NCBI GenBank assembly: GCA_026982895.1
Contig: JALWQW010000003.1
Location: forward strand, 10,063 to 74,062
Length of the DNA: 64,000 nucleotides
Direction: 5' to 3'
DNA from: Candidatus Micrarchaeota archaeon
Lineage (GTDB): Archaea; Micrarchaeota; Micrarchaeia; Anstonellales; J096
Shown here: positions 6,512 to 37,693 of the stretch, piece by piece
How the letters are laid out: every line of letters starts with the position of its first letter
Position numbering within the stretch: position 1 is the stretch's first letter
Made by a program: the position numbers and the translations under genes
The notes under the pieces: generated by a model
Databases searched by the model: none
The model's input: the letters and a program-made list of their open reading frames with translations, nothing else
Told to the model about the DNA's origin: nothing

Positions 6512-7063
6512 ATGCTCTTAAAAAAGAAGTCCCTTTTGAAGAAATATGAGGAAAAATATGGCAAAAATCTCGTTAGAAAAGCATTCAACAAGTATAAACA
6601 ACTAGACAATGAGCATTTCTTAACAACACTCGTAAGCACATCTATAACTTTAGCACCTTCTTTGGCTACAGCCATAGCTTTGGTAGAGAGGGATTCTCCT
6701 TCTAATTCAGATGTAATGGTTGGGGTTGCTTTTGCTATTTTGGGCAGTAAAATTGCTCTTGATATAAGCCAAGAGTTTGAAAACATCCTCTTTCCAAAGG
6801 AGAAAATAGGCAGGTGGGCGCTTCTTAATAGGCTATTTGGAAGGAAGAGTAACAGCAGATATTTCTTTGAACAGTTAGCCGGTTTCACAGGCATTTGGAG
6901 CGGCTTTTTATTCATATTAACGCAACCCATGCTTGGCAGTTTATTGGCGTTGACTTCTACCACTATGTTTTTGTATTCTATCAAGGCGCGCATCTATGAT
7001 AAGGGTTTAGCGGACTTGAATGAAGATAAAGCCTTTGAGATGTTGAAGGACAATCTTTTATAA
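6512..7063 (+). CDS. Hypothetical protein with a basic N-terminus, a hydrophobic core and an acidic C-terminus
   Basis: 183-aa ORF. It is preferred over the overlapping antisense ORF 6508..6993 because its composition is more protein-like. A TATA-like 'GGTATAAAAAAC' sits just upstream. Confidence 0.4.
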   Translation: MLLKKKSLLKKYEEKYGKNLVRKAFNKYKQLDNEHFLTTLVSTSITLAPSLATAIALVERDSPSNSDVMVGVAFAILGSKIALDISQEFENILFPKEKIGRWALLNRLFGRKSNSRYFFEQLAGFTGIWSGFLFILTQPMLGSLLALTSTTMFLYSIKARIYDKGLADLNEDKAFEMLKDNLL

Positions 7064-7115
7064 AAAGTTTGATAAATAGTTATATTATGTGTTTGTTAGC
7101 ATATATGGTGGTATA

Positions 7116-7655
7116 ATGAATCTCTTGAAAAAGGTGGAATCTAAAAAAGGCAAATCTTTTGTAAAGAAACTCCGTAAGCATTACACCACATTAGAAGAGC
7201 GCGCTTTGCTTGCCTACGCAGCCAAAGGAAGTATTGCAGGCGTAAGCACCTCCACATTGCTTAAACTCTTCATGGATAGAGATATTAATGGAGGAGAGGA
7301 TACTTTCTTAAATATATTAACTAACACAGTGATGGTAATAATATCTTTAGAACTTGCTCATACTGTTGGCGATGAGATGTTTGATGGACCTGAAAATAAG
7401 GTCACATGGCATGTTTTGGGGAAGGTCTTCGAGAAAGATTGGAAAGTGAAACTATGGAAGGCCATGGAGCGAATGGGTTTGTTTGGTTTTGTCATGAGCT
7501 CCTTCCTTCTTAATACAGATATTGTGCAGGCAGCCATTTTCTCTTCTGTCTCTTGGATGAGTTTCTTTTATGGAATGGAGCGACAAGGAGGGTATAATTT
7601 ACCAGATGATGATGTGCTAGAAATCATATCACAAACTGAGCTTGATGATGATTGA
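7116..7655 (+). CDS. Hypothetical protein, a possible distant paralog of the upstream gene
   Basis: The ATG at 7116 is preferred over the GTG at 7089. Like its neighbour, it has an 'MxLLKK' basic start, a central hydrophobic segment and an acidic tail (DDDVLEIISQTELDDD). Confidence 0.4.
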   Translation: MNLLKKVESKKGKSFVKKLRKHYTTLEERALLAYAAKGSIAGVSTSTLLKLFMDRDINGGEDTFLNILTNTVMVIISLELAHTVGDEMFDGPENKVTWHVLGKVFEKDWKVKLWKAMERMGLFGFVMSSFLLNTDIVQAAIFSSVSWMSFFYGMERQGGYNLPDDDVLEIISQTELDDD

Positions 7656-7675: not shown

Positions 7676-7696
7676 TTCTTCACTTATCTCTCTTCA

Positions 7697-7768
7697 GCCT
7701 CCGTAGCTCAGCGGCAGAGCGACCGCCTCGTAAGCGGTAGGTCGAGGGTTCAAATCCCTCCGGAGGCT
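7697..7768 (+). tRNA. tRNA-Thr (anticodon CGU)
   Basis: The sequence folds by hand into a cloverleaf. The acceptor stem is GCCTCCG/CGGAGGC. The D-arm is GCTC-AGCGGC-AGAGC. The anticodon stem ACCGC/GCGGT carries the loop CTCGTAA (U33, CGT, A37). The T-arm is GAGGG-TTCAAAT-CCCTC. There is no intron and no encoded CCA. Confidence 0.85.
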
Positions 7769-7810
7769 TCAATACCTATGTTTATAAACTTTTTCACACA
7801 CAAATTAATC

Positions 7811-8539
7811 ATGGTTGCAGCGCGCTCTACTACCTTGTCTAGAGATAGGGTGTTGGATATAAATCCAACCATGAGGGCCTTTTTGGCAAGGAATAAAAGC
7901 GTCGTCGAGAAGAAGCGCTCTTTTTTGTCCAAAAGCCTATTCCACCAGCGCCGCATTTCTAGTTCGAAAAAACAAGAGCCGAATTTGCTTGTAATAACCT
8001 CAACTGACAGCCGCGTTCCTGTCGAGGAGATATTCGCAGCGTATCCTGGCGAGATGTCTGTTATAAGGCAGTTTGGTTTTGTTTTAGGTAGGGAGGGTCT
8101 TGCCTCTGTTTATTATAATCTAACACGCCGACCAATAGATACTGTTCTTGTAATGGGCTTATCTAAATGTTCTGCTTTGGAGTTCATATCTAATTTGTTA
8201 TTGAGCGAACATCCTATCCCCCGTTATTTACATCCCATTGCTGGGGGTATCACATCTTCAATAACGGAGTCTCGCATAAATCATGCTTATAAAGACGACT
8301 CAGATGTGCTCTTAGAGGCTGCCATGAGAAATGCTATTCGAGTAGCGTCAAGCGTTTATGAAGTCCTTACTCACATTCGGCTCAATGAAGGTGCTTTTTT
8401 GAAGGATAGGGATGTAAAAATCTATAATGGAGTATATTTCCCAGAGAGTGGCTATGTTCGCCTTTTTACAAATAACTTGTCCTTCGTTGATGAAAAAGGC
8501 AAGGAAATAGAGATTACTCCTAAGGGCCATATCATCTGA
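7811..8539 (+). CDS. Beta-carbonic-anhydrase-like paralog lacking two zinc ligands (a pseudo-enzyme or an incipient pseudogene)
   Basis: It aligns with the intact downstream CA ('FLARNKSVVE', 'DSRVPVEEIFAAYPGE'). However, 'CSDSR' has become 'STDSR' and 'HTKCG' has become 'LSKCS'. The annotated ORF start at 7652 would overlap the tRNA, so the ATG at 7811 (or 7778) is used. Confidence 0.55.
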   Translation: MVAARSTTLSRDRVLDINPTMRAFLARNKSVVEKKRSFLSKSLFHQRRISSSKKQEPNLLVITSTDSRVPVEEIFAAYPGEMSVIRQFGFVLGREGLASVYYNLTRRPIDTVLVMGLSKCSALEFISNLLLSEHPIPRYLHPIAGGITSSITESRINHAYKDDSDVLLEAAMRNAIRVASSVYEVLTHIRLNEGAFLKDRDVKIYNGVYFPESGYVRLFTNNLSFVDEKGKEIEITPKGHII

Positions 8540-8588
8540 CCTCTTTTTTTATAAACCCTCCGTCGTAATGGATTAGGGAGGTGTTGCT

Positions 8589-9203
8589 ATGGAAAGACGC
8601 AATCCAGATGAAGTGCTTAATGAATTTTTGGCGAGAAATAAAGCAGTCGTCGAGGCGCAGGCCAGCTTTGATTACAACAAATTTCATGAGAGCAGGCAGA
8701 AAACCTATGATGAAGGGCAAAAGCCGTCTTTGACTGTTATTGCATGTAGCGATAGCCGCGTTCCTGTCGAGGAGATATTCGTAGCCTATCCCGGCGAAAT
8801 ATTCGTGATAAGGACTGCAGGTAATGTTCTTGATGATATAGGAAAGGCTTCGTTAGAATATGCGCTCGACCATCTTCCAACATCCGTTGTTCTTGTTTTG
8901 GGACATACCAAATGTGGTGCTGTAACATCGACGGTTGAAGTATTTAAGAATGGTAAAATTTTGGAGGGTTCGCATCTCTATAGCTTAACGGAGAAGATTA
9001 GGCCCCTCGTTGTTGAAGCTATTGAGGAAGGAGCAAGCGATGAGAATCTTATAGATAAGGCCATAATCAAAAACGCTAAATCTGTTGTTAATGAGATATT
9101 GACTACCATGCCCATCGCTAAAAAATTGGTCGAGGAAGGGAAGGTTAAAATTCTCCCCGCCATGTACTACTTAGAGAGTGGAGAGGTGAAGCTTCTTGAC
9201 TGA
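8589..9203 (+). CDS. Beta-class carbonic anhydrase
   Basis: Zn-ligand motifs are intact: 'CSDSR' (Cys, Asp, Arg) and 'HTKCG' (His, Cys). Length is 204 aa. Confidence 0.75.
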   Translation: MERRNPDEVLNEFLARNKAVVEAQASFDYNKFHESRQKTYDEGQKPSLTVIACSDSRVPVEEIFVAYPGEIFVIRTAGNVLDDIGKASLEYALDHLPTSVVLVLGHTKCGAVTSTVEVFKNGKILEGSHLYSLTEKIRPLVVEAIEEGASDENLIDKAIIKNAKSVVNEILTTMPIAKKLVEEGKVKILPAMYYLESGEVKLLD

Positions 9204-10416
9204 ACAGACGGAATCTGAAAAATTATATACATTCAAGCGCACGCTCAAAAAGCTTAGGCAGTTTAGAGGTTCCGGCACTCAATTAGTTTCGGTATATATA
9301 CCTGCTAGCTATCCAATACCAGAGATAGCGGCTAAAATTAGGGAAGAGATGAATCAAGCGCAGAACATAAAGAGCAAGCAGACGAGAAACAATGTTATAG
9401 CAGCATTGGATAGAATCAATAATGCATTAAAGCATTTCAAAAAGACACCTCCTAATGGATTGGTCTTATTTGCCGGCAATATATCTCCAGACCCTTCTAA
9501 AACAGACATACAGACATTCATTCTTGAGCCTCTCTATAAGCTGAACCAAAGCGTGTATCGATGTGATTCCACATTTTTCTTAGAGCCCCTTGAGAGGATG
9601 GTTAAAAGCGACGATGCCTATGGTATCCTGGCTATAGAGGGCAGGGAATCCACCCTCGCTCTCCTCAGAGGGACTGAGATTACTATACTTGAACACATCC
9701 ATAATCCGGCTCATGCTAAGGTTAGAAAGGGAGGACAGTCTGCTAGGCGTTATGAGCGTTTAGTCGAGGAAGCTACAGAGAGGTATTATAAGAAAGTCGG
9801 CGAAGCCATGGATAAGCACTTCTTGAATAAAGTGAAAGGCATTATCATAGGTGGTCCAGGCCCTGTGAAAGAATATTTCGTAAAGACAAAGCCTTTCAAC
9901 TATCAGCATAAAATCTTGGGCGTCGTTGATACAGGCTATGCGGATGAGCATGGCATTCATGAGATAATCGAGAAGGCAGATGAGATTTTGCAGCAGCATG
10001 AAGCAATAAAAGAAAAGAATCTCGTGCAGCGTTTCATAAAAGAAGTGGTTAAGGGAGGAAAAGCAATATATGGTTATAAAGATGTTGTTGAGGCCATAAA
10101 GAGCGGTAGAGCAGAGCTTGTCTTGGTTTCGGATGAGATTCCATTACAGTATTTCAAGTTTAAGTGCCCTAATGATGGAACTGAAAAAGAGCTCATCGTT
10201 AAGCCCGATGAGGTAGATAAGATTAGATTGAAGCCTTTGCAGTGCCCCAAATGTAACGCTGCCATGGAGATTGAAGAAGATGATGATATAACAGACCATA
10301 TTATAAGCATAGCCGAGGAGCACAATATCCCTGTAGAAGTTATAAGCAAAACAAGCGCTGAAGGTATGCAATTCTTTAAGGGCTTTTATGGTCTTGGCGC
10401 GTTTTTAAAGTATTAA
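9196..10416 (+). CDS. prf1: Peptide chain release factor aRF1
   Basis: Contains the GGQ motif ('KGGQSARRYERL') and a NIKS-like 'NIKSK' in domain 1. The apparent TTG start overlaps the CA stop by 8 nt. Confidence 0.85.
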   Translation: MTEQTESEKLYTFKRTLKKLRQFRGSGTQLVSVYIPASYPIPEIAAKIREEMNQAQNIKSKQTRNNVIAALDRINNALKHFKKTPPNGLVLFAGNISPDPSKTDIQTFILEPLYKLNQSVYRCDSTFFLEPLERMVKSDDAYGILAIEGRESTLALLRGTEITILEHIHNPAHAKVRKGGQSARRYERLVEEATERYYKKVGEAMDKHFLNKVKGIIIGGPGPVKEYFVKTKPFNYQHKILGVVDTGYADEHGIHEIIEKADEILQQHEAIKEKNLVQRFIKEVVKGGKAIYGYKDVVEAIKSGRAELVLVSDEIPLQYFKFKCPNDGTEKELIVKPDEVDKIRLKPLQCPKCNAAMEIEEDDDITDHIISIAEEHNIPVEVISKTSAEGMQFFKGFYGLGAFLKY

Positions 10417-11511: not shown

Positions 11512-12051
11512 TCAATTTGTCTTTATGCTGCACATACCTTCCTTGTAGTTATTATCGACATTTACATCCAGTAGCCTCTCATAACTTTGGCTAGCTGAGG
11601 AGTTGCCTTCATGCACATAAATTATGTAGCAGTCGTGCGTTTTCAAGTAATTTAAACACTTTCCTTTGTCCCATTCTATTTTTTCTCCTTTTGAACATGG
11701 CAGTGATTGGCAGTTGTCCATAAGGTTTCCTTCGCATTTATCGCCGTTGAATGCCAAGAAGTTTACAACCTTCTTGGGAAAACTTCTAAGGGCTGTCTGA
11801 TAATATTCTAAACTACAATCCATCACAGGCTTTGCTAATTCTGTATTGTTGGGATTTTCTAGGACAATGCATAGGGGTTTATTCAATATATTGCTGTTCA
11901 TATCTGCAATTCCTATGCTCTGTCCTCTTAACGCTTCTAAACTTGTATTGCTTTGAGGTGTAGAGTAATACAACAATATGCCAAGGGCTATCGCTAATAA
12001 AATAATTCCGAGTATCCATTTTGTGCTCTTATCTATTTCTTGATTAGGCAT
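11512..12051 (-). CDS. Cys-rich membrane-anchored extracytoplasmic protein
   Basis: N-terminal TM segment 'WILGIILLAIALGILLYY'. It has 10 Cys in about 140 aa and several N-x-S/T sequons. Its start overlaps the stop of the upstream 688-aa gene. Confidence 0.45.
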   Translation of the reverse strand: MPNQEIDKSTKWILGIILLAIALGILLYYSTPQSNTSLEALRGQSIGIADMNSNILNKPLCIVLENPNNTELAKPVMDCSLEYYQTALRSFPKKVVNFLAFNGDKCEGNLMDNCQSLPCSKGEKIEWDKGKCLNYLKTHDCYIIYVHEGNSSASQSYERLLDVNVDNNYKEGMCSIKTN

Positions 12052-14110
12052 ATTTAAACACCTCCGCTATATAACATTCATCATAAGCATATTTTGGAAG
12101 TTCAACTCTTAGGATGTTCTCACCTAAATAAGAACCGCTTATTTCACTTTTATCTGCGAAGTTTGCCATTATAACAGGCTCGCCGTTGAATCTATCACAG
12201 GCTGCCGCAGCTTGGCTTTTTCCATTAACCTTACATGTATCATCATAGCTTTCTATAAGTGTAACATTCTTCCCGTCTTTCTTGAGCTCATCTTTAACCT
12301 TCTCCAAACAACTGACGATGCTGCTGTCACTCTTAGCTATCAATAGGACAGAATTGCTATTCTTTATTGCCTTTGAGAAATCTTGTATTGTTGCACCGTA
12401 CAATCCTTTATCAAAGGCGAAGAATGACGCGCCTGTAAAGAATATGAACACTGTAAACGCTCCTATCAATATAATCATGAAGAAGAAAATGCGCTTGCTC
12501 TTTTTTATCCTCTTGGCCTTTTTCTCCTTTCTGTAAAACATGGGCACGCTTATCCATACCACGACGGCTGCCATCGATGTTCCAACTATTAGGGAGTAGA
12601 TGATTGGCGTGCTCTCTAAGAATTGTTCCCTTAAGCTTAGTGATTTAGGTAGATACGGTTTTGTTATTGTATATAGGCTGTTGAAATATGTCTGAAGGCT
12701 GCCTAAAAATGTATTTACAAGGGAGCGCTTTTCTCCGCTGGCGGCGTTGAATAACTCTGTTGTTATATTTTCGTAACGGTTGTAAAATAGCACTAATCTG
12801 GTGGCATCTATTTTTCCAGATGTTTCCTTCGATAGGCTTTCGTGTTCAGCTTTGATTCTTTCCCTTTCTAAGGGATCAGATATTTTGTTGTACAATGAGA
12901 GGTACATTATCTCAAAGTGCCTCTTAGATTCGTCAAGTTTGTCAAGCAGCGTTTCATAATTCTTTGTTGCATTAGAAATAGCGTATATTGTGTTCTCCAG
13001 AGTTTTTATCTTCACCTCTATATATGTAAAGTTGTTGTTTTCTATCTTATCCTTTATTTCATCTTCAAGGGGCTCTATAGAATAAACCTTTTTTCTTAAT
13101 TTATTATCATTTATTTCATCCAAAACTTTTATTGCGCGACTCTTTAGGCTGTTCCATCCTTTCAGCGTGCTGTTAAGTTCGCTGGTGTATTGCGTTCTTA
13201 ACTCATAATTGTGCCTAGATTCTATGCGCGTCTCAGTTGAGTTGTAAAGCTCGTCGAGCACATCCCTAAATTCGTAGAGAGGTTCTGTCGCCTTTGCCCA
13301 TTTGTCTGCTGTGTTTTTTAAGTTATTCAAGGCGGTTTCATTAACGATAAGTTCGGCGCACACACCGTAACAATCAGGGCAGTCTGCTAGATTTGTTGGG
13401 AATCTAAATTTGTTACTGTCTATGGCATCAACATCATCTTTTATTTTGTCAACAGCGTCGCTTATATCTTCAAATTTTAGGCTCATAATGGCCAAATCTT
13501 CCCCATCTTTCAAATAATTAATGGACTCTTCGATAGTGCTTAATTGCGTATCTATATCATAACTGTGTGTGAAAAAGCTTTCAACATCAGGAAGTATATC
13601 CGTGTAATCAGTACATCCTATGTCTGGGCCGAAATTGGAACAGATATAGCGTGAATAAAACTCGTATATGCTCGAATACATAGAGGGGTTGCTTGGCTCG
13701 CCTAGGTTCTCGCCAAGGGATTTTCTACACGCTTCTTCTTCTGTTCCTGGAAATTGATCCCCATTGTTTCTACTCTCATTAAAAGCAGCAGCCCACGCCT
13801 CCATCTCGTTGGCTATTTCATTAATATCGCTGGGCGCGTATTTTTTTAGGTAATATTGCCATAATATATCTTTCATTTCGGATTTACTCTCTACAATCTC
13901 ACTGTTATTTCCTTTAACCAACAGGGCGGGCTCTCCTTTGACATAGACTAAACTGTAATTTGTTGAGACATTTGTGAGGTTGAGCGGCACAATATTTACT
14001 ACTGCATTTTCTTCTCCTGGAAGAAGATAATAACTAGCATTATCCAAAACTTCAGCGAATGTCAAGCTGGCTACCAATATCAAAAATAAACCTAGGCTCC
14101 AATACTTCAT
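12044..14110 (-). CDS. Large glycoprotein-like surface protein with C-terminal membrane anchors
   Basis: Signal-like N-terminus 'YWSLGLFLILVASLTFA'. It has many N-x-S/T sequons and two hydrophobic helices near the C-terminus ('IIYSLIVGTSMAAVVVWISVPMF', 'FFFMIILIGAFTVFIFF'). Confidence 0.5.
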   Translation of the reverse strand: MKYWSLGLFLILVASLTFAEVLDNASYYLLPGEENAVVNIVPLNLTNVSTNYSLVYVKGEPALLVKGNNSEIVESKSEMKDILWQYYLKKYAPSDINEIANEMEAWAAAFNESRNNGDQFPGTEEEACRKSLGENLGEPSNPSMYSSIYEFYSRYICSNFGPDIGCTDYTDILPDVESFFTHSYDIDTQLSTIEESINYLKDGEDLAIMSLKFEDISDAVDKIKDDVDAIDSNKFRFPTNLADCPDCYGVCAELIVNETALNNLKNTADKWAKATEPLYEFRDVLDELYNSTETRIESRHNYELRTQYTSELNSTLKGWNSLKSRAIKVLDEINDNKLRKKVYSIEPLEDEIKDKIENNNFTYIEVKIKTLENTIYAISNATKNYETLLDKLDESKRHFEIMYLSLYNKISDPLERERIKAEHESLSKETSGKIDATRLVLFYNRYENITTELFNAASGEKRSLVNTFLGSLQTYFNSLYTITKPYLPKSLSLREQFLESTPIIYSLIVGTSMAAVVVWISVPMFYRKEKKAKRIKKSKRIFFFMIILIGAFTVFIFFTGASFFAFDKGLYGATIQDFSKAIKNSNSVLLIAKSDSSIVSCLEKVKDELKKDGKNVTLIESYDDTCKVNGKSQAAAACDRFNGEPVIMANFADKSEISGSYLGENILRVELPKYAYDECYIAEVFKYA

Positions 14111-15181: not shown

Positions 15182-18100
15182 TCATATTGGCAGGACATTG
15201 AAGTGGCTACTGTGTAATATGGCCTCAACATCTAATTCTTTTTCTATGTCGTCGTGCGAATATTCGTAATTTCCTGTATTCACCGCGTCGTCGAATCCGT
15301 ATCTGCCTATAAGTGTCATTTCAACGCAATCTTTATCACTCTTGTCTTCGTTCAAATAAACGCACACAAAGGCATGGTCGCTTTCCAATATTATTTTTGG
15401 GTAAATACCTGCAGACATTAGTGCAGTTGCATATACCAAGCTTCCATCGATGCAATTAGCTCCGTTTGCTTCTAAACTTTGGCTTGGAGTATAAACCCTT
15501 TGTACTCCTTCCATGCCACTTTCAGTTGTGCTTACATAATGCATTCCTTCATCATTCAGTTCGTCGTATATAGCTTTCATCTGTAATCGTGTGCTCTCTT
15601 CTTCTGTACAACTGCTCCTTCCGTCGTCGCCACATCCACTGGAATATGTACCATAGCCTATAAACGCTCTACTGGGCAGCCTATTAGCCGCTGCTGAAAC
15701 TAAATTATGGACTTCCTGCGATCCTGTTGTTACCCACGCCACTATCGCGTTATAGTATCGCGAATCCCATTTCATTGAATTGGCAGGCATAAGTTCAGCA
15801 TCGGCTGTCGCCGCCGCCACAACATTTCCACTATTGTCGAGTATCTTCACGACATATTGGATATCTCTTTTCTCCAAGTTGTTCAGGGCGGCATTATTTA
15901 GGTCGAGGCTTATCTCTTCTGTCCATTTACCGTTAGGTGTTAGAGAGATATCATCAGTATATGTGTAACTGTAATCAGGGATGCTAATCTCCATTCTGCC
16001 ATCAAATCCTTCGCTGCCGGAATTTTCGGCACTTGCTATAACCATCGTTTTTCCGAAATAGTCTGAATTTATAGCGAATGCAGGTATTATTGGATCGCCA
16101 AAGCTTGTGCTGATAATAGTTGCTGTAATTTCGCTTGAGCCCTGAACTACAATGCTTTTACTCGTTTCTAAGTTTCCTGCACTGGCTTCGATTATGTCCA
16201 CGCCTGAGAATGAGCTTGAAGATGTATAGACAACTGAACATTTTCCATCCCCGCCCGTATCGCATGATGAATCTATATCTCCATGATTAGCTGAGAAATA
16301 AACTCTTTTACCTGCAACACCGTTTCCTATTTCATCTTTGATAGTTGCTTCAACAGCGCAAGAATCCCCGCTATTAATTGTACTTGGATTAAGCGTTAGA
16401 TAGATCTCTTTTGGTTCTGGCGGCTTTAATTTAATATCAACACTATCTTTAGCATCGCCAGCCTCACCAACTATTTCCACAGTTTCACTATATTTGCTTT
16501 CTCCTGCTATATATTCAACATAACATCTTCCGTCTTCTGTTGTGCAATGGTCTGTATCCAATTCACCTGGACCTACATAAACTCTAAAATTAACCACTGT
16601 TCCATCATCGACAGGCGATCCACTTATAGTATCTACATCTGCATATATCCTCATCCTGCTACGACCATCTGCTGGTAGTTCATTTGTGTAGCTATCGGTG
16701 TATAATCTTATTTTTCCAGCCGACCGGGATATTTTGAGAGTTATATCTCTATTTAAATTATCTGAGAGTTGATTTATATTCGCACCAGAAACCCCTTTAT
16801 AGTTCTGAAATGCTTTGTTAACATCATCACTACTCACATATATGGAAATGTCTAAATTATCAGGATAATAATTCCACCAAGAATCATCATCTTTATAATA
16901 TACTTCTGATTTGCACAAACCATTATCACCAGTGTGACACACACTTAATGTTAAATCTCCACGTGTGCTCTCAAAATCGACCTCTGTGTTTGGCACGGGC
17001 TTTCCATTGATATCGACGACTTCCACTGTAATAGTCGTTGCTTCTGCGCCACCCTCTACTACATAATCCTTGTCTGTGCTTATTATCAAATTGTAAGGAT
17101 ATGTTCTTTTCATTTTCAATGTTGCTTTACCTTTAACATCCTCAACTTCTCCGTCAATTTCTATTGTGTAATCTTTATTTCCGTTGTATGCAGGCCTAAA
17201 TGTAACGCTGCATGCCCCATTTTTAGTCGTGCATGTGGTTGAATTGAATGAGCCTTCTCCATTTGCATGGAACCTGACAACCACACCGTTGTGCACTTTA
17301 TGCCCATGACTCTCAACATGGGCATTAATTGTTATAGACTTATTAGCTGTAGCTAACATGCTGGATGGGCTTAAATCAAGGCGTATATCTGTGACTTCTT
17401 CGCTTATGCTTATATCTATGCTTTTGCTTTTATTCCCTATTGTAATATCTATCTTATCAGATCCAAAGTGGTTATTTTCAGGGATATAATAAACTTTACA
17501 CTCATATTTTTCTTCAGTAAGACATAATGTTGCATTGCCATCATTTTCTAGCTTTCCTTCAACAGCTTCGAATTTACCATGTGTCGCTTTTAATCTTACT
17601 TTCTGATAATTAATTGCCACGTTGTCCTCATTTAATGGTATTATTGTTATCGTCGTATTCTTGTCAACATACTTTGTTAGATTACTTTTCCCCACCTTTA
17701 TTTTAAAATCATTGGCAGTTAACGGCCTAACATAAAAACTTACACTTTTATTTACTTCATCCACCTCCCATTCCTCTCTATTGGGGTTTATTACTGTTAT
17801 ACTTACACTCGTGTTTCCTGATTTTTTACCCACTTTATATTTAAGAGTGCATTCTGGCGGTTTAAATGTACAACTTTTTGGACTAATTTCCCCACTACCT
17901 TCTTTTATTTTAGCCCTTATCCAATAACCTGCAGGAAGATTTTCGTCTCTCCTATTTTTTAATTTAATATGCATCTCTAGCTCATCTTTTCCATTTGCAT
18001 ATAATGTTTTATTTTCCACATCAACCAGTACTTTATCCAAATTAGGGTACAATAAAGATATTTTTTTGTGGATGGTTTTTTTACCCATGCTTGTTTGAAT

Positions 18101-18481
18101 AGTTATATTTATCTCGTCGCCTTTGTTCAAGTCATTCTTAGGAGGTATATACTCTACATAACACTTCCCCTTGCTTTTACAATAAGCCTTTTTCAGTATA
18201 CCTCTTTTGGCGCTTGCGCTTATCTTTATTCCTTCTACTCCCCCACCAAAGGCGTTTCTAACATGTATCTCCATCTTTTTAAGATTGCCATCTGCAATAG
18301 TTATCAAGTCATTGCTCTTATATAATTTTAAGAGACTTCTATTTAGATTATTCATACCTTCAGGGCCATATGTTTTTACCTCTTTAATGCTTTGCGACAG
18401 CGCACTAAACACAAAAACCGCAGCCGCTACACTGACAATTCCTAACCCGAAAATAATGTAGAGTAATTTTTCGCCCTCCAC
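15182..18481 (-). CDS. Giant membrane-anchored surface protein: an array of Ig-like domains plus a C-terminal transglutaminase-like (Cys-His-Asp) domain
   Basis: N-terminal signal anchor 'LLYIIFGLGIVSVAAAVFVFSAL'. Modules of about 90 aa recur, each ending in a 'C-T-x-x-G-x-C-x-V-x-Y' di-cysteine motif (TTCTTKNGACSVTF, DHCTTEDGRCYVEY, SSCDTGGDGKCSVVY, SVCHTGDNGLCKSEVYY). The C-terminal 'NCIDGSLVYATALMSAGIYPKIILESDHAFVCVY...DKDCVEMT' resembles a transglutaminase-like core. Confidence 0.6.
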   Translation of the reverse strand: MEGEKLLYIIFGLGIVSVAAAVFVFSALSQSIKEVKTYGPEGMNNLNRSLLKLYKSNDLITIADGNLKKMEIHVRNAFGGGVEGIKISASAKRGILKKAYCKSKGKCYVEYIPPKNDLNKGDEINITIQTSMGKKTIHKKISLLYPNLDKVLVDVENKTLYANGKDELEMHIKLKNRRDENLPAGYWIRAKIKEGSGEISPKSCTFKPPECTLKYKVGKKSGNTSVSITVINPNREEWEVDEVNKSVSFYVRPLTANDFKIKVGKSNLTKYVDKNTTITIIPLNEDNVAINYQKVRLKATHGKFEAVEGKLENDGNATLCLTEEKYECKVYYIPENNHFGSDKIDITIGNKSKSIDISISEEVTDIRLDLSPSSMLATANKSITINAHVESHGHKVHNGVVVRFHANGEGSFNSTTCTTKNGACSVTFRPAYNGNKDYTIEIDGEVEDVKGKATLKMKRTYPYNLIISTDKDYVVEGGAEATTITVEVVDINGKPVPNTEVDFESTRGDLTLSVCHTGDNGLCKSEVYYKDDDSWWNYYPDNLDISIYVSSDDVNKAFQNYKGVSGANINQLSDNLNRDITLKISRSAGKIRLYTDSYTNELPADGRSRMRIYADVDTISGSPVDDGTVVNFRVYVGPGELDTDHCTTEDGRCYVEYIAGESKYSETVEIVGEAGDAKDSVDIKLKPPEPKEIYLTLNPSTINSGDSCAVEATIKDEIGNGVAGKRVYFSANHGDIDSSCDTGGDGKCSVVYTSSSSFSGVDIIEASAGNLETSKSIVVQGSSEITATIISTSFGDPIIPAFAINSDYFGKTMVIASAENSGSEGFDGRMEISIPDYSYTYTDDISLTPNGKWTEEISLDLNNAALNNLEKRDIQYVVKILDNSGNVVAAATADAELMPANSMKWDSRYYNAIVAWVTTGSQEVHNLVSAAANRLPSRAFIGYGTYSSGCGDDGRSSCTEEESTRLQMKAIYDELNDEGMHYVSTTESGMEGVQRVYTPSQSLEANGANCIDGSLVYATALMSAGIYPKIILESDHAFVCVYLNEDKSDKDCVEMTLIGRYGFDDAVNTGNYEYSHDDIEKELDVEAILHSSHFNVLPI

Positions 18482-21039: not shown

Positions 21040-22953
21040 ATGAGCCTGGCAGATTGGGTCGTTCCTTTTTACTATCTCCGTGATGTGAAAAAGGAGGTTA
21101 GAGAGGCGTGTGCTGCTTCTCCCACTGCTTGCACTGCTACTATATCTTTGTATAGTTTGTCAGTCGTAGCAGACACTCTGTCCGTTCTCGGAGCTCTTTT
21201 CACCTTTGGCACATCTGTTGGGGCAGGATATGGAATTAAAATAGCTATCCGCGAGGCTGCTCTTCGCATTATCAAAGAGACTACTGCCGTTGGACTTGTA
21301 GATATACTTAAACCAGGATCTAAGAAGTTGGCAGAGGGCTTGGCTGGTGCTGTGAGAGGCTTGCATGAGGCAGCAGAGGAGGGACGGTTAAGCTGGGCTG
21401 CCGCTAGTAAGAAGGTTTTGGATATGTATGATTCAGCCAGGCATTATTTTGAGGAAATAGGTGTTCCTCAGCTTTTCAGAGATGCTACTAAACTTTCGTC
21501 CAAGCAGATGAAGACTCTTTTTGGCGAGGAATTCTATAAACTTCTTAAAAAGGGAAAGGAGCTCCCCTCCGCTGTCATTGCTGCTGATAAAAAAGCTATG
21601 TGGCTATCCAACCTCTTTAGTGGGCAATTGGGCGATACAATGCTTGCATTTTATAGAGTGAGCACCAGCCAAGCTATTTTGGATGTCGAGAGGAAGTATG
21701 GTGTAAAAGTTGTCTTATATCCTTTCGGCGGGGATGAAACACTCATGTTAATCCTTCACACAAATGGGAAGGTTGTAGAGGCTGCTGCTAATGAAATCAA
21801 AGAAAGGACGCTGAAGTACATGGAGAAACTTGTAAAAAAAGCTGCTGAGAAGGATCCTGCTTTAAAGGGCGTCATGGACAAAGTGAGCGGCGTAGAATTT
21901 AATATCGCTTATGTCACAACAAAAATGAAAAAGGGTAAAGTTTTATTCAAATCACCTTTTGTTGGGAGGAGGATTAAGTCTTTATCAGCTCACATGGCAA
22001 ACATAGAGGCGAAGCGCTTACTCGGGAAACTGCCTCTAAAACAAAGGCTCATGTTCAAGACTTTACAGAGGCGCATCGCCAAATATGCGCCTAAATTTGC
22101 TCCGGGTATAAAAGATGCTATTGAGGTTGAGAATGCCGTTAAACTTGGTGAAGGCACTTTTACGGCTTTTCGTATAGGGGTGGCGAATGAAAAGAGCTTG
22201 TCTAGTTTTTGGCTACTCACTGAAAAAGCTGGAAAGGCTCTTATGCATGTTAAAAATAAGCAGTTAGGTATCTCGACACTTAACCTTTTGGGGCATGGCT
22301 TTGCTGATAATATGAGGGCGATGGTCATAGATGCTGTCCATGAGGCGGCTGAAGCTATGGGAAAAGAAGTAAAGGTTTATCTTGTTAAGGATGGAGGGCC
22401 CCTTTCCATATACATCGAGGGCTTATCTAAGACAGAATCTGCGGCTGTGCTTAAAAAAGCCCAACAAATCTTTTTGGACAAAGCAGAGTCCTTAGGCATC
22501 TCTAAATGGGGATTCAGGCTTAGAACATTCACAGGAGAGACGAGGGAAGCGCTCACATATAATGTTAGGTTATCTAAATATGGTACAAAGTTCTGTGGAG
22601 ATGCTCTTCATGTGTTTGAAGACAATCGTGAAACAATTTATACTTATTTAGCGGTTGCTAAATGGGATGACGCGCATTTCAAGCTCGCTCTTTCTGCTAT
22701 AGATAAGACGGGATTAGATGGTTTAAAGGCAGTGCTTAAAGAATCTTTGAAGATATGGCACGATAATCCTTCTGCTAGGAATATAGAGGATTTCCTCACG
22801 ATTTTAGGCGAAGTGGCTACAGGTAGAGGCATAAAACTCACTCAAAAGAATTTCAGCAGGCTTATTTATGGCCTTACTACCGCAGGCATATCGTTGAAGG
22901 CAACAACTGCTGGCGGCATACAGGAAGAGAAGATGGAACGCGAAATTAAATGA
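21040..22953 (+). CDS. Large hypothetical protein with an N-terminal hydrophobic segment
   Basis: 637 aa. The N-terminal region 'CAASPTACTATISLYSLSVVADTLSVLGALFTFG' is hydrophobic. The rest is mixed alpha/beta with no recognisable catalytic motif. Confidence 0.5.
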   Translation: MSLADWVVPFYYLRDVKKEVREACAASPTACTATISLYSLSVVADTLSVLGALFTFGTSVGAGYGIKIAIREAALRIIKETTAVGLVDILKPGSKKLAEGLAGAVRGLHEAAEEGRLSWAAASKKVLDMYDSARHYFEEIGVPQLFRDATKLSSKQMKTLFGEEFYKLLKKGKELPSAVIAADKKAMWLSNLFSGQLGDTMLAFYRVSTSQAILDVERKYGVKVVLYPFGGDETLMLILHTNGKVVEAAANEIKERTLKYMEKLVKKAAEKDPALKGVMDKVSGVEFNIAYVTTKMKKGKVLFKSPFVGRRIKSLSAHMANIEAKRLLGKLPLKQRLMFKTLQRRIAKYAPKFAPGIKDAIEVENAVKLGEGTFTAFRIGVANEKSLSSFWLLTEKAGKALMHVKNKQLGISTLNLLGHGFADNMRAMVIDAVHEAAEAMGKEVKVYLVKDGGPLSIYIEGLSKTESAAVLKKAQQIFLDKAESLGISKWGFRLRTFTGETREALTYNVRLSKYGTKFCGDALHVFEDNRETIYTYLAVAKWDDAHFKLALSAIDKTGLDGLKAVLKESLKIWHDNPSARNIEDFLTILGEVATGRGIKLTQKNFSRLIYGLTTAGISLKATTAGGIQEEKMEREIK

Positions 22954-34767: not shown

Positions 34768-37692
34768 TCACCTCCACCAGTTAGCTATTACTTTTGCTAT
34801 ATCCACACCTAGCTTTTTTATGTCCTTGTTTACTATCCTATTTCTTCCATACATTTCCTTATACTCTGAACTATCCTCGTGTTGCACTATTACGCTCACC
34901 ACGTTTATTAGCTCTTTTTCCGCCTGTTTAACCGCTTCTCTAACATCTCTAACTGCTTCACTCTCTTCATAAGATGTGCCCCCATGAAGGGGCTCCCCGT
35001 CGCTAACCACTATGAGCAGTTTGTTCTTGCTGTTCCTTTCTTTTAGTTTCTTGATTGCGTGTCTTATTGCTGCACCGTCTCTGTTCTCGTAAACACAACA
35101 AAACCCTACGTTTTCTGGAATGTCCAAGTAAGGTATCTTAGCTATGCCTGAATCGAAGTCCTTTATCTTAAGATAGTATGTTAGTTCTCTTCCGTGCACT
35201 GAAGCAAACCCTGCTATCTCATATTCTAATTCCCCTAAATCTCTTAGCGCCTTGGCAAGCACGTAAACCATATCTCTCTCCCCTTCAATAGCTCCATTAC
35301 GTGCTGTGGAACCGCTTAGGTCTATTAGGATTAGCACTGAGGCCTTGTTGGATTCATCTTTCCTCCTCTGCCAGAACTCGGGTTTTGCTAGTGCATTCTG
35401 CCTTACTTCATTTTTCCAGTTGAGATAGGCCTTTACGTTAAATCTGCCTCTGGTCTCATCTAAGCTTTCTCTAATCTTTCTCTCAACCAACTCCTCAAAG
35501 CTTTTGTGGATTTTTTGAATTATTCCATTGTAGCCTCTAGCGACGTAGCCCTCAGTTTTTGGGTATTCCACTTCCATAACAGGATGTCTGAACTGTGTTC
35601 CTTCGTAGTAATGGAGATCTCCTTTAGGGTCTCTATATTTTAGACCCTCTGTCACTTCACTATGGACATATTCATATTCTTCTCTCTCCTCTTTGCTGAG
35701 CTTGTCTAGCCCCCTCTTTTTCAGCTCTTTGCTCTTTTCAGCTTCCTTCTTTAGGCGTTCTAGCAGTTTCTCTTTATCCTCTTTGCTATCCACTAATATA
35801 GGCATTGAGATGGGATTGGTTAAGCCCCTTGGGACTTTATATCCTCCTTTCTTTTTGCTGTCCATCTCACTCTCTTTAGGATTGTCGCATTCTCTACCAC
35901 TTTCTCTTTCTTCTGAGGATGGCTCCTCATCCTCCTTTCCCAGCTCTTTCTTCCTCTCACCCAATTCGCCAAGCCTTTTCTCCATCTTCTTCTTTAACTC
36001 GTCTAAGCTTCCTCTGCCTTTACTCATCTTGTCCATTTCTTTCTTCAACTCTTCCAGAGCTTCCTGCTCTTTGCCAATCCTATCTAGCTCTTCCCTAATC
36101 TCGGAGAGCTTCTCTTCAACATCTTTAGCTCCTTCAGCATCACCCCTTCTTTTCATCTCCTCCAATTCTTTGCTCAGCTCCTCAGCTTCCTTCTCCAGCT
36201 CTTTCTTCCTCTCACCCAATTCGCCAAGCCTTTTCTCCATACTCTCTTTTGCCACTTCTTTTAACTTCTCAGCAGCTCTTTTCAGGTCGCTCTCATCGAA
36301 CTCTCCTTCCTCTGACTCACCGGCTTTACTTTCTACAATTTCTTTACCATACCATAGGAATATGAGCTCCATGATTTGCATAGAGATGTTTATAGAGTCT
36401 GCTATGTCACTTCCAATTTCCTTAACGGGTTCCACCATCTTAGCAGCGAGATTCAACTTTTCCCTCAATTTGGGGTGAAGCTCACCTTTAACTTTGCCGG
36501 TGTACAAATATTGTAATAGGCCCTCTAAGAAGTTTGATAGATTGTCCTCATATGTGAGTGCAGGTCTATCCTTTGCGTAAACTTCGATCATGGTTTTTAT
36601 GTACTTTCTGAAACCTGGGAAGCGCTCCATGGAAAGTGTGTCTATACGGATATCCTCTACGATGTTTAGTAAGTATTGGAAGAGCAACCTTTCTGGAAAT
36701 TCTTTTGCTACTTCATAAAATGTTTTGTATTCCTCTTTTCCTTCCACTCCGAATAGCCTCTTTATATCCTCACTAAATTTTTCATCCTCTTCGTCCCTTA
36801 TACCAATTCCTGAGATGATCTTTTTCTGGGATTTTAGGTTCTTTATGAGCTCCCAGTTTATCCTGTTTTTCTCTACTATTATGCTTCCATCTGGAGAAAT
36901 GTGCATGGCTTCATGGATCCCTTGCATTATATAAGTGTACTTATTTAGCACCTTGGTTGGGAACTTATCAATGGTTTTGGGTAGGTATATATAAGGGGGC
37001 AAGCTTTTTGGTCTGTCTCCACTCTTTATTATTGGCTCGTATAGCCCCCTTACTACAATCTTGGCCATTCTACTTACACGTTTTTCCATTTCCTCAAGAG
37101 AGACTTTTCTCCTTTCGTGGATTTTGGTGAAGTTTTCTAATACTCTCTCCCTGTTTTCTAGATCTTCTTTTAGCTTTTCTTCATCTTCCCTTACTTCTCT
37201 TATCCAAGGTGTCACATGGGCAAAGGGGTCTGCCGAGAGAATCTCTTTGGCTATTTTGTTAACCTCTAGGCTGTCGTTGAGGTCTGCCTCTCTAAACAAT
37301 TCATCTATCTCTCGAATGTACTCCTCTATACGTGGAACAGGCACACCTTTAGTTAGGAGCGTTCCCACCAAGCTTACATTCTCTACGAGCCCTGGCAGTG
37401 TTTTGAATTTCATCAATAGTCCTATAGCGTCGTCTAGCTCACCTTCTTTTAGTTCTCTATAGCTTCTTATGTTTTTTAGCATTAGTTGGATTATTAATCT
37501 CTGCTTTTTGTCATCCGTTTTTTCCTTAATATTATTCAGTCTCTCTTTAACTTTGCTTTCATTGTCTGCGAAGGCGCTGTATCCACTATAGTAGCTGCTT
37601 GTCCCGTACTCACTGTATGGATATGCAGTTCCCCAATAATCTTGTGTTTTCTTATCGGCTTTTTTTCTCTTCCACAACTTCTCTATACCCAT
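34768..37692 (-). CDS. Large coiled-coil protein with a C-terminal von Willebrand factor A (MIDAS) domain (CbbO/NorD-like partner of the AAA ATPase)
   Basis: C-terminal 'VLILIDLSGSTARNG' (DxSxS MIDAS) and 'LLIVVSDGEPL'. The central region is extremely K/E-rich coiled coil with an internal repeat. The stop is 2 nt from the AAA gene. Confidence 0.65.
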   Translation of the reverse strand: MGIEKLWKRKKADKKTQDYWGTAYPYSEYGTSSYYSGYSAFADNESKVKERLNNIKEKTDDKKQRLIIQLMLKNIRSYRELKEGELDDAIGLLMKFKTLPGLVENVSLVGTLLTKGVPVPRIEEYIREIDELFREADLNDSLEVNKIAKEILSADPFAHVTPWIREVREDEEKLKEDLENRERVLENFTKIHERRKVSLEEMEKRVSRMAKIVVRGLYEPIIKSGDRPKSLPPYIYLPKTIDKFPTKVLNKYTYIMQGIHEAMHISPDGSIIVEKNRINWELIKNLKSQKKIISGIGIRDEEDEKFSEDIKRLFGVEGKEEYKTFYEVAKEFPERLLFQYLLNIVEDIRIDTLSMERFPGFRKYIKTMIEVYAKDRPALTYEDNLSNFLEGLLQYLYTGKVKGELHPKLREKLNLAAKMVEPVKEIGSDIADSINISMQIMELIFLWYGKEIVESKAGESEEGEFDESDLKRAAEKLKEVAKESMEKRLGELGERKKELEKEAEELSKELEEMKRRGDAEGAKDVEEKLSEIREELDRIGKEQEALEELKKEMDKMSKGRGSLDELKKKMEKRLGELGERKKELGKEDEEPSSEERESGRECDNPKESEMDSKKKGGYKVPRGLTNPISMPILVDSKEDKEKLLERLKKEAEKSKELKKRGLDKLSKEEREEYEYVHSEVTEGLKYRDPKGDLHYYEGTQFRHPVMEVEYPKTEGYVARGYNGIIQKIHKSFEELVERKIRESLDETRGRFNVKAYLNWKNEVRQNALAKPEFWQRRKDESNKASVLILIDLSGSTARNGAIEGERDMVYVLAKALRDLGELEYEIAGFASVHGRELTYYLKIKDFDSGIAKIPYLDIPENVGFCCVYENRDGAAIRHAIKKLKERNSKNKLLIVVSDGEPLHGGTSYEESEAVRDVREAVKQAEKELINVVSVIVQHEDSSEYKEMYGRNRIVNKDIKKLGVDIAKVIANWWR
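35941..36240. repeat. Exact 45-bp direct repeat inside the vWA gene
   Basis: 'CAGCTCTTTCTTCCTCTCACCCAATTCGCCAAGCCTTTTCTCCAT' occurs at 35941-35985 and at 36196-36240, 255 bp apart. Both copies encode 'MEKRLGELGERKKEL'. Confidence 0.75.
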
Positions 37693-37693
37693 C

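Follow-up and report, generated by a model that had tools for sequence, protein, structure and literature searches.

The window analyzed here is a stretch of 64,000 nt, and all features described lie on its forward (+) strand. A tRNA-Thr gene with anticodon CGU (CGT in the DNA) was located by ARAGORN and Rfam (RF00005, 72.7 bits) at positions 7696-7770. It is followed by two beta-carbonic anhydrase (beta-CA) genes, an upstream copy of 242 aa (7811-8539) and a downstream copy of 204 aa (8589-9203), both of which were recognized by Pfam Pro_CA, confirming the tandem arrangement described in the initial annotation. The tRNA gene lies just 5' of the promoter of the upstream copy. It was considered as a part of the CA system and rejected, and because the single-CA relatives L052 and L055 carry no tRNA at this position, its location here looks incidental. 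The public gene call for the upstream copy (P0001, 295 aa, TTG start at 7652) was set aside as a start-codon miscall which runs through the tRNA gene; alternative starts are found at TTG 7835 and ATG 7871. Two independent assemblies of the locus, from ENA and Logan, were base-for-base identical to the window. The gene content is archaeal, including aRF1, Cbf5, geranylgeranyl reductase, GatB and HerA.

With respect to expression signals, a TATA-like box (TTTATAAA, 7782-7789) is present in the sequence 21 nt before the ATG at 7811. Archaeal TATA boxes are spaced at -26/-27, and judged from the position of this box the transcript of the upstream copy would be leaderless. A second TATA-like box (TTTATAAA, 8548-8555) precedes the downstream copy, and in each case the box falls inside a 14-nt repeat common to the two promoters (7776-7789 and 8543-8556). 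A T-run at 8544-8555, directly 3' of the upstream stop codon, overlaps the downstream box and is likely to be an archaeal oligo-T terminator. The two copies are separate ORFs in different frames, with a 49-nt gap holding the stop codon, the T-run and the TATA-like box between them. Since each gene has its own promoter-like element, co-expression of the two is not guaranteed.

The downstream copy is a canonical plant-type beta-CA (Pro_CA, 121.2 bits). It retains the Cys-Asp-Arg...His-x-x-Cys zinc site attributed to it previously, with the ligands Cys53, His106 and Cys109 in place along with Asp55 and Arg57. Among solved structures, the nearest to both copies is the plant-type enzyme Rv3588c (CanB) of Mycobacterium tuberculosis (PDB 2A5V, 1YM3), matched at E 1.5e-20 by the downstream copy, with which it shares this site, and at E 1.8e-06 by the upstream copy. 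Cab of Methanothermobacter thermautotrophicus (PDB 1G5C), an archaeal beta-CA suggested earlier for comparison, does have the same zinc ligands as the downstream copy but proved a poor comparator, matching it at only E 7.3e-06. Enzymes of the Cab type lack a conserved Gln151/Phe179/Tyr205 pocket (PMC13514724), whereas the downstream copy keeps this plant-type pocket as Gln44, Phe72 and Tyr91. The end of the downstream stop overlaps by 8 nt the TTG start of an archaeal release factor gene (aRF1, 9196-10416; Pfam eRF1_1/2/3), the product of which is 51% identical to the aRF1 of L052. This CA-aRF1 pair was kept in all relatives examined (L003-L005 and L052-L055).

The upstream copy matched the Pro_CA profile (PF00484) over positions 2-155 of 156 with 46.1 bits, so that both ORFs score above the curated cutoff of 25.7 bits, and BLASTP aligned it with the downstream copy at 38% identity over 208 columns (E 1e-33). 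Using the zinc ligands of pea beta-CA (Cys160, His220 and Cys223) as reference, the codon alignment and an HMM alignment to the solved Rv3588c both bore out the Cys-to-Ser and His-to-Leu changes reported for this copy. The first ligand is replaced by Ser64 (TCA, 8000-8002) at a site which is TGT in the downstream copy and all orthologues and which is 100% Cys in 98 other beta-CAs, while the histidine is replaced by Leu117 (TTA, 8159-8161; CAT in the downstream copy). The initial annotation had allowed for a correct alignment restoring the ligands; no such realignment was found, and three independent alignments agreed on Ser and Leu. The second zinc cysteine (Cys120) and the Asp-Arg dyad (Asp66 and Arg68) are retained. 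An active enzyme has Cys, His and Cys at the ligand positions, where this copy has Ser64, Leu117 and Cys120, for which reason it ought not to be classed as a carbonic anhydrase enzyme.

The substitutions extend beyond the ligands. The upstream copy is also without equivalents of the pea substrate-contact residues Phe179, Val184 and Gly224, and the pocket residues Gln151, Phe179 and Tyr205, placed at constant distances from the ligands of the codon alignment, corresponded to Gln55, Ser83 and Tyr102, two of the three being kept. With these ligands and pocket residues lost, the upstream copy would be unable to hold a catalytic zinc, and the sequence supports a reading of it as catalytically degenerate. 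Among 38 family columns with at least 85% conservation, it keeps 23 and loses 15, compared with 35 kept and three lost in the downstream copy. These losses were not significantly concentrated in the active site (5/10 there versus 10/28 elsewhere, Fisher P=0.47).

The alignment of this copy along its length, with a longer and divergent C-terminus, was likewise upheld: the protein runs 23 residues past the end of the CA domain and is about 13 residues longer at the N-terminus. Neither this extension nor the Ser and Leu changes are found in Rv3588c, a lone gene without a dead partner. An AlphaFold2 model of the upstream copy gave a pLDDT of 90.2 and a pTM of 0.87, values which are partly driven, in the case of pLDDT, by the active homologues in the alignment. 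The top 50 PDB hits of this model in Foldseek were all beta-CAs, the best being Rv3588c with TM-scores of 0.70 and 0.83 (the latter target-normalized), and the beta-CA alpha/beta fold is thus predicted with confidence. The C-terminal extension was modeled with a pLDDT of 82-89 though it is covered by no other sequence in the alignment.

A 28-nt block previously noted as identical in both genes was confirmed at 8009-8036 and 8754-8781. These are its only two occurrences in the window, and no matches were obtained in shuffles. Each lies within one copy of a direct repeat (7973-8068 and 8718-8813) that is 96 nt long and 77% identical. When the codons of both proteins were redrawn from the codon usage of the window, an exact run of at least 28 nt had a probability of ~2e-4. 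Within the block the two copies use the same codons (CGC/CCT/GTC/ATA/TTC), and three orthologues of the downstream copy use AGA/CCA/GTT or ATA/ATT or ATA/TTT. Over the N-terminal (5') half, 34 of 52 same-amino-acid codons were identical between the copies versus 17.8 expected (P<5e-5); the C-terminal half gave no excess (7/21 versus 7.5 expected). In 45-nt sliding windows identity between the copies peaked at 0.91, compared with 0.78 in that stretch for the downstream copy against its orthologue in L003. The copies differ at 0 of the 28 nt, and across the 11 codons that cover the block there are 7 nt differences between the downstream copy and the L003 orthologue; the flanks of the block are only ~50% identical between the copies.

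Of the two explanations originally offered for the block, gene conversion or very recent partial duplication, only the first was sustained. The shared synonymous states and the codon-identity excess restricted to the 5' half therefore point to short-tract gene conversion, and indicate that the block is the core of a putative tract between the two copies. Very recent partial duplication was rejected on account of the ~50% identity off the tract and of the tree, in which the upstream copy falls outside all four downstream-type sequences. The codons for Ser67 and Arg68 of the upstream copy are within the block and that for Asp66 is within the surrounding repeat; because these codons sit in the tract, the Asp-Arg dyad may persist there via conversion and not selection.

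In the neighbor-joining tree the upstream copy, on a very long branch, was sister to the downstream copy and its three orthologues, with a bootstrap value of 1.00 on the entire clade and of 0.97 on the group that excludes it. The downstream proteins of the diverged lineages are only 55-62% identical (62% for L004), and since the upstream copy branches outside them, the duplication predates the split of these lineages. Traces of the upstream copy were found in two relatives. An ORF fragment of 83 aa just upstream of the CA of L004 matched it at E 3e-5 and has the same C-terminal extension, with the motif F[LV]DE[NK]G.IE, and in L003 the final two codons of the upstream copy survive along with its stop and the intergenic promoter sequence. 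The tandem arrangement is kept in L004 and, to judge by the stop and the intergenic sequence, in L003. In the outgroups P0009 and P0008 a lone CA adjoins aRF1 and there is no upstream copy.

A full-length upstream copy was found in one genome only. An exhaustive HMMER search of 1.84 billion representatives yielded no more orthologues, and a word-index search recovered only this copy and downstream-type CAs. The L004 fragment used as a query gave no candidate orthologues; a MAFFT alignment of the upstream copy with this fragment was left out as a query, the N-terminal part of the fragment being misplaced. A scan of genome contigs with aRF1 for syntenic relatives produced no confirmed match, and a search of genome and metagenome contigs with the downstream-clade alignment returned only bacterial or other CAs of at most 43% identity, none of this lineage. 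A partial match of 58% identity at a contig end (L049) was rejected as a relative, being a bacterial CA beside a NuoE-like gene.

Zinc-less beta-CA modules encoded together with a catalytic one are known from two systems, and the two copies share the feature of being encoded together. In alpha-carboxysomal CsoSCA (PDB 2FGY) a duplicated beta-CA module has lost its zinc residues and stays beside the catalytic module (PMC10614612), which makes it a model for the upstream copy; it is the C-terminal domain of CsoSCA which is without the zinc-binding residues (PMC10614612). DabA2 carries a pair of beta-CA-like domains. In CsoSCA, however, the modules are fused and carboxysomal, and DabA, of the DabBA inorganic-carbon pump, is fused, bacterial and coupled at the membrane to DabB, whereas the archaeal copies are encoded as two separate ORFs, each with a promoter-like element, and not in one polypeptide. 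No carboxysome families were found among the flanking genes examined, no DabB-like gene was found beside the two copies, and 2FGY was absent from the PDB sequence hits of both. The likeness to CsoSCA and DabA is possibly one of functional analogy, and not of family membership. Multi-domain beta-CAs which, like the two copies taken together, combine an intact CDR..H..C domain with ligand-less domains were also identified in public protein sets (among them P0157, P0137, P0170 and P0200). P0157 has SDR..V.C (Cys to Ser, His to Val) followed by CDR..H.C, in the same order as the copies here. These proteins are uncharacterized fusions with 26-32% identity to the upstream copy and represent independent events.

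The data indicate that, in the ancestor of a small subclade of archaea, an ancestral beta-CA gene adjoining aRF1 underwent tandem duplication along with its TATA promoter, the repeats being spaced 745-767 nt apart. One copy, the downstream one, stayed a normal zinc enzyme. The upstream copy lost the Cys and His ligands and several pocket residues and has probably been retained as a folded, translated protein, and the two still exchange short stretches of DNA in their 5' halves, the source of the 28-nt identity. Beta-CAs are obligate dimers. Their active site is situated where the monomers of the dimer meet (PMC5155245). Given this architecture, the upstream copy is proposed to be a non-catalytic subunit pairing with the downstream enzyme, and its retention of the Gln151 and Tyr205 equivalents was counted in favor of such pairing. 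The resulting heterodimer would have one active site, with the upstream subunit scaffolding or tuning its partner and taking no part in catalysis, and would form a two-gene counterpart of the fused catalytic and zinc-less pseudo-dimers of CsoSCA and DabA. Taken as a whole, from tandem duplication and the keeping of a zinc-less copy through gene conversion to the pairing of the two proteins, a step at which we purely infer, this account seems to us slightly better than an even bet. More speculative is the idea that the upstream copy can exist only in a heterodimer with the active paralog beside it, as an unfused two-gene stage of the route to CsoSCA and DabA, with ongoing conversion keeping the 5' segments matched; we put this forward tentatively, as possible and on balance doubtful.

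The upstream copy could alternatively be a neofunctionalized stand-alone protein independent of the downstream enzyme, either a sensor binding bicarbonate or CO2 or an enzyme working via Asp, Arg and Cys120 with a remodeled hydrophobic pocket (Phe88, Phe90 and Leu117), its extension mediating some other partnership. An intact and conserved gene with its own promoter-like element and a T-run after its stop counts in favor of this reading, as does a lineage-specific extension which is conserved between the window and L004 and modeled at pLDDT 82-89. There is also an unrelated stand-alone zinc-less beta-CA homologue, P0217, in which a similar FG[LF]VL replaces AGNV, and the beta-CA fold is known to have been co-opted for other reactions, with CS2 hydrolase and COS hydrolase among the PDB hits of the downstream copy. 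Both of these hydrolases, however, keep the zinc site which the upstream copy does not. The Asp-Arg dyad is inside the conversion tract and its retention may be a by-product, the tight tandem linkage to the downstream gene has been kept across the subclade, and no independent evidence points to any ligand. We regard independence of the downstream enzyme as rather unlikely.

Another possibility is that the upstream copy is a slowly decaying pseudogene making no functional protein, its frame open by chance or partly refreshed by gene conversion from the downstream copy. In favor of decay, its branch in the tree is very long, no second full-length copy has been found, its 5' half is demonstrably subject to gene conversion, and the loss of two zinc ligands and of 15 of the 38 conserved residues reaches beyond the active site. 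Its codon score (0.122, versus -0.62 +/- 0.15 for off-frames) is low, at the 4th percentile of the genes of the window, and together with the spread of the losses this fits broadly relaxed constraint. Against decay, frameshifts, premature stops and loss of the coding signal were all absent. The ORF proved intact, as first reported, with no in-frame stops compared with 9-18 in the other five frames, and when neutral decay of the downstream copy to 51% nucleotide identity was simulated, a mean of 9.7 stops accumulated and the probability of none was ~5e-5. The 3' half, which bears no trace of conversion, is nevertheless open, aligns to beta-CAs and keeps Ile147, Asn174, Tyr209 and Gly214. A pseudogene dating from before the split of lineages with 55-62% identical downstream proteins should be unrecognizable. 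In L004 an orthologous stretch of 83 codons is still open and bears the same non-CA extension, and in the window the TATA-like box stands at a leaderless distance from the ATG. Pairwise omega was ~0.5 (Nei-Gojobori), a value which is unreliable with saturated synonymous sites (pS 0.56-0.84) and a single full-length upstream sequence. We consider a pseudogene improbable. The earlier suggestion of a non-catalytic paralog rather than a dead gene was supported by the ligand loss, the open frame, the predicted fold and the L004 fragment, and the upstream copy is probably a non-catalytic partner protein. Misalignment, chimeric assembly or chance as the cause of the apparent ligand loss or of the 28-nt identity is scarcely credible given three concordant alignments, identical ENA and Logan assemblies, and a 28-mer seen 0 times in shuffles and at P~2e-4 in the codon redraw.

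Dead-enzyme paralogs acting as scaffolds or regulators are well known among kinases and proteases and, for CAs, among the CA-related proteins of the alpha class. For beta-CAs, no examples other than fused domains, those of CsoSCA and DabA, are known to us. If the proposed pairing is true, the upstream copy would be the first beta-class CA pseudoenzyme to stand free and have a defined partner, and in an archaeon. Standing beside its active parent, it would show the intermediate in a course of duplication, loss of one site and later fusion, and the two proteins would make a simple system in which to study the advantage to a beta-CA dimer of having one site. In practical terms the significance is modest, the case concerning one uncultivated lineage and being argued from sequence. 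The locus would also be a clean natural case of short-tract gene conversion between functionally asymmetric paralogs. The conversion tract ends 6 nt short of the codon which separates the active from the dead copy.

The upstream gene of the tandem pair (up) encodes a folded-looking, long-maintained beta-carbonic anhydrase (beta-CA) paralog which is without two zinc ligands and which adjoins, and recombines with, an intact beta-CA gene (dn). A tRNA-Thr gene (anticodon CGU, 7696-7770, detected by ARAGORN and Rfam) is followed on the same forward strand by the open reading frames of up (7811-8539, 242 aa) and dn (8589-9203, 204 aa), which scored 46.1 and 121.2 bits against Pfam Pro_CA (cutoff 25.7 bits), and by the archaeal release factor gene aRF1 (9196-10416), which starts at TTG and overlaps the stop codon of dn by 8 nt. 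The two proteins aligned over 208 columns with 38% identity (E 1e-33). The public call for up (P0001, 7652-8539, 295 aa) begins at TTG 7652 and runs through the entire tRNA-Thr gene; this start is an annotation artefact, and ATG 7811 is most likely the true start. A TATA-like box, TTTATAAA (7782-7789, forward strand), is located 21 nt upstream of ATG 7811, a distance suggestive of a leaderless transcript. A near-identical element was observed at 8548-8555, right after the T-run trailing the up stop codon. The repeats linking the two gene/promoter copies are spaced 745 and 767 nt apart, indicating that the promoter was duplicated along with the gene. From these putative promoters and the putative terminator, up and dn look like separate transcription units. 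Just 5' of the tRNA, the ORFs 6512-7063 and 7089-7655 (forward strand, 183 and 188 aa, neither with a Pfam match) form a tandem paralog pair of their own (24% identical, E 3e-8), giving two distinct tandem gene pairs within a short region.

Ser64 (TCA) of up occupies the column of the first zinc-ligand Cys and Leu117 (TTA) that of the zinc-ligand His. These columns agreed in a codon alignment that combined up and dn with three dn orthologues, an HMM alignment to solved beta-CAs and a dn-clade profile, bearing out the degenerate zinc site described in the initial annotation. Cys120 and the Asp66-Arg68 dyad are retained. Other pocket positions were mapped by fixed offsets from the ligands using the active-site list of the pea enzyme (PMC5155245): Gln151 (dn Q44, up Q55) and Tyr205 (dn Y91, up Y102) are kept in up, while Phe179 (dn F72, up S83), Val184 (dn A77, up F88) and Gly224 (dn G110, up S121) are changed. 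A family alignment of 99 sequences has 38 columns conserved at 85% or more; of these dn keeps 35 and up 23, and the losses in up were not significantly enriched at ten active-site positions (5/10 versus 10/28 elsewhere, P=0.47). Up is best described as a protein that has diverged broadly and lost its metal site too, rather than as a surgically inactivated enzyme. It lies within the Pro_CA sequence and fold family and lacks the full set of zinc ligands, and therefore should not carry annotation as a carbonic anhydrase enzyme. The product of dn is an ordinary plant-type beta-CA; its pocket residues fit the published definition (PMC13514724) and its closest solved relative is Mycobacterium tuberculosis Rv3588c (E 1.5e-20). 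Cab, the comparator proposed earlier, proved distant from dn (E 7.3e-06).

By analogy with known systems, up may be non-catalytic and act via dn, the two proteins pairing as a heterodimer with only one active site, where up would serve to scaffold or tune dn. This proposal is based on the beta-CA active site lying where two monomers meet (PMC5155245), on natural pairings and on the rarity of stand-alone ligand loss (1/192 homologues). Catalytic beta-CA modules and zinc-less duplicates are repeatedly paired in nature, DabA2 having two beta-CA-like domains, and many of the retrieved multi-domain beta-CAs carry degenerate domains beside a single intact CDR..H..C domain. In one of these (P0157), domain 1 carries Cys-to-Ser and His-to-Val changes and domain 2 is intact, an order which matches up then dn. 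That up is a maintained non-catalytic paralog we consider probable; joined to the partnership with dn, which we infer, the statement is favoured only slightly over its alternatives, and the heterodimer specifically is put forward as a tentative model. It is rather unlikely that up has instead been neofunctionalised to a stand-alone binder or enzyme that relies on its new 23-residue C-terminal extension, a segment which was modelled at pLDDT 82-89 though uncovered by any other sequence in the alignment.

Were the heterodimer to form, up would function as the zinc-less domains do in CsoSCA and DabA, where both modules share one chain. It is not a member of either system, since up and dn are separate chains and specific homology is absent, and no carboxysome or DabB family was found among the flanking genes examined. 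No free-standing zinc-less beta-CA paralog was described in the literature searched, the incomplete coverage of which makes this weak evidence of novelty. The only one of the 192 stand-alone homologues to lack ligands, P0217 (274 aa, L051 392-1216, an unrelated short contig), keeps the first Cys, with the His and second Cys replaced by Thr and Ser; at the AGNV site of active enzymes it reads FGLVL, resembling FGFVL of up, which may be convergence. A three-domain architecture also recurs among public proteins of 700-890 aa (P0137, P0170, P0200, P0149, P0195, P0188 and P0192), with an intact beta-CA (CDR..H..C) between ligand-less beta-CA-like domains showing patterns such as C..NN and GE..ES.

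The earlier view that up may not be a dead gene was supported. No in-frame internal stop was found in up, compared with 9-18 in the other five frames of that stretch, and when dn was left to decay neutrally in simulation to the 51% nucleotide identity observed, a mean of 9.7 stops accumulated and the frame stayed open in 5/100,000 runs. The codon-usage score of up (0.122) is low, at the 4th percentile of genes (mean 0.218 +/- 0.060 in this genome), and still far above off-frame scores (-0.62 +/- 0.15). AlphaFold2 modelling with the family alignment gave a pLDDT of 90.2 and pTM of 0.87, and the best 50 Foldseek matches of the model in the PDB were all beta-CAs, Rv3588c first. Together with the age of the duplication, the open frame, coding signal and predicted fold point to a maintained protein and make a slowly decaying pseudogene improbable.

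In neighbour-joining trees dn and its three orthologues formed a clade with up as its sister; the bootstrap was 1.00 for the whole group and 0.97 for the orthologue clade without up. Identity of these orthologues to dn is only 77%, 62% and 55%, and their synonymous sites are saturated, so the duplication is old. Relatives retain traces of the upstream copy: L004 has an 83-codon ORF fragment reaching the contig edge directly 5' of its CA, which matches up (E 3e-5) also across the non-CA extension, where up reads FVDEKGKEIEI and L004 FLDENGEFIEV; in L003, which has only 57 nt 5' of its CA, the final two codons and the stop codon are recognisable, followed by the same intergenic sequence with its putative promoter. 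The more distant relatives encoding P0009 and P0008 (CAs 45-46% identical, aRF1 51% identical to that of the window) have a single CA then aRF1, and both the up copy and the tRNA are absent at this position. From the tree and these gene contents, an ancestral CA-aRF1 pair underwent tandem CA duplication in the ancestor of the subclade, followed by loss of the zinc site from the upstream copy and its long-term retention. In every relative examined aRF1 lies directly 3' of the beta-CA, with the 8-nt overlap at a TTG start in close relatives (window 9196-9203; L003 665-672; L004 916-923; L005 693-700) and a gap of 0-8 nt where CA identity is 45-46% (L052 3561; L055 3561-3569). The lineage was not found in the GTDB representative genomes or JGI metagenome contigs scanned, and full-length up is known from one sequence.

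A 28-nt block identical in both genes had been attributed to gene conversion or recent partial duplication. It occurs exactly twice (8009-8036 and 8754-8781), within a 96-nt repeat of 77% identity, and spans nine conserved codons (S R V P V E E I F). Apart from Ile at the second Val in L004, the same residues are found in the three dn orthologues, but with the codons AGA, CCA, GTT or ATA, ATT or ATA, and TTT; up and dn share CGC, CCT, GTC, ATA and TTC. In the 11 codons that cover the block, 7 nt separate dn from its 77%-identical orthologue; inside the block, none separates it from its 38%-identical paralog. When codons of both proteins were redrawn from window usage, an exact run of at least 28 nt arose at P~2e-4. 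Same-amino-acid codons were identical at 34/52 positions in the N-terminal half (17.8 expected, P<5e-5) versus 7/21 in the C-terminal half (7.5 expected), and only in the N-terminal half did quartet patterns at third codon positions favour an up-dn grouping. Such a pattern marks short-tract gene conversion limited to the 5' half. Recent partial duplication was rejected because at the protein level up never grouped with the dn of the window (bootstrap 0.00-0.01). The exact block starts 6 nt past the Ser/Cys codon, so that the active-versus-dead difference is preserved in both copies. The Ser67 and Arg68 codons of up lie inside it and the Asp66 codon inside the 96-nt repeat, and retention of Asp-Arg is thus no evidence of function. 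Two independent assemblies are identical over the locus (the source contig is ENA ERZ23491061 scaffold_160, 96 kb, and is also present in Logan run SRR13853571), so that the block does not stem from assembly; an artefact of any kind is highly improbable. Duplication, pseudoenzyme status and conversion are well supported; the single full-length sequence and the broad loss of conserved residues limit the finding, and the function of up is proposed from sequence.

The gene content of the window is archaeal, including aRF1, an IF-2B-family protein, Cbf5-like TruB+PUA, geranylgeranyl reductase, HerA, a type-2 IPP-isomerase-like FMN_dh protein, polyprenyl synthetase, GatB, a GatA-like amidase and both ADP-forming acyl-CoA synthetase subunits. 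Many large ORFs lack a Pfam match, among them several of 483-1329 aa at E<=1e-5: 59912-63901 (-), 44400-46940 (+), 12044-14110 (-), 21040-22953 (+) and 51086-52537 (+). The ORF 15182-18481 (1099 aa) carries bacterial Ig-like Big_1 domains, and an AAA_5 (dynein-related/MoxR-like) ATPase (37694-38680, reverse strand) adjoins a 974-aa protein with a CobT-like VWA C-terminus (34768-37692, reverse strand), forming an ATPase and VWA pair at 34768-38680.
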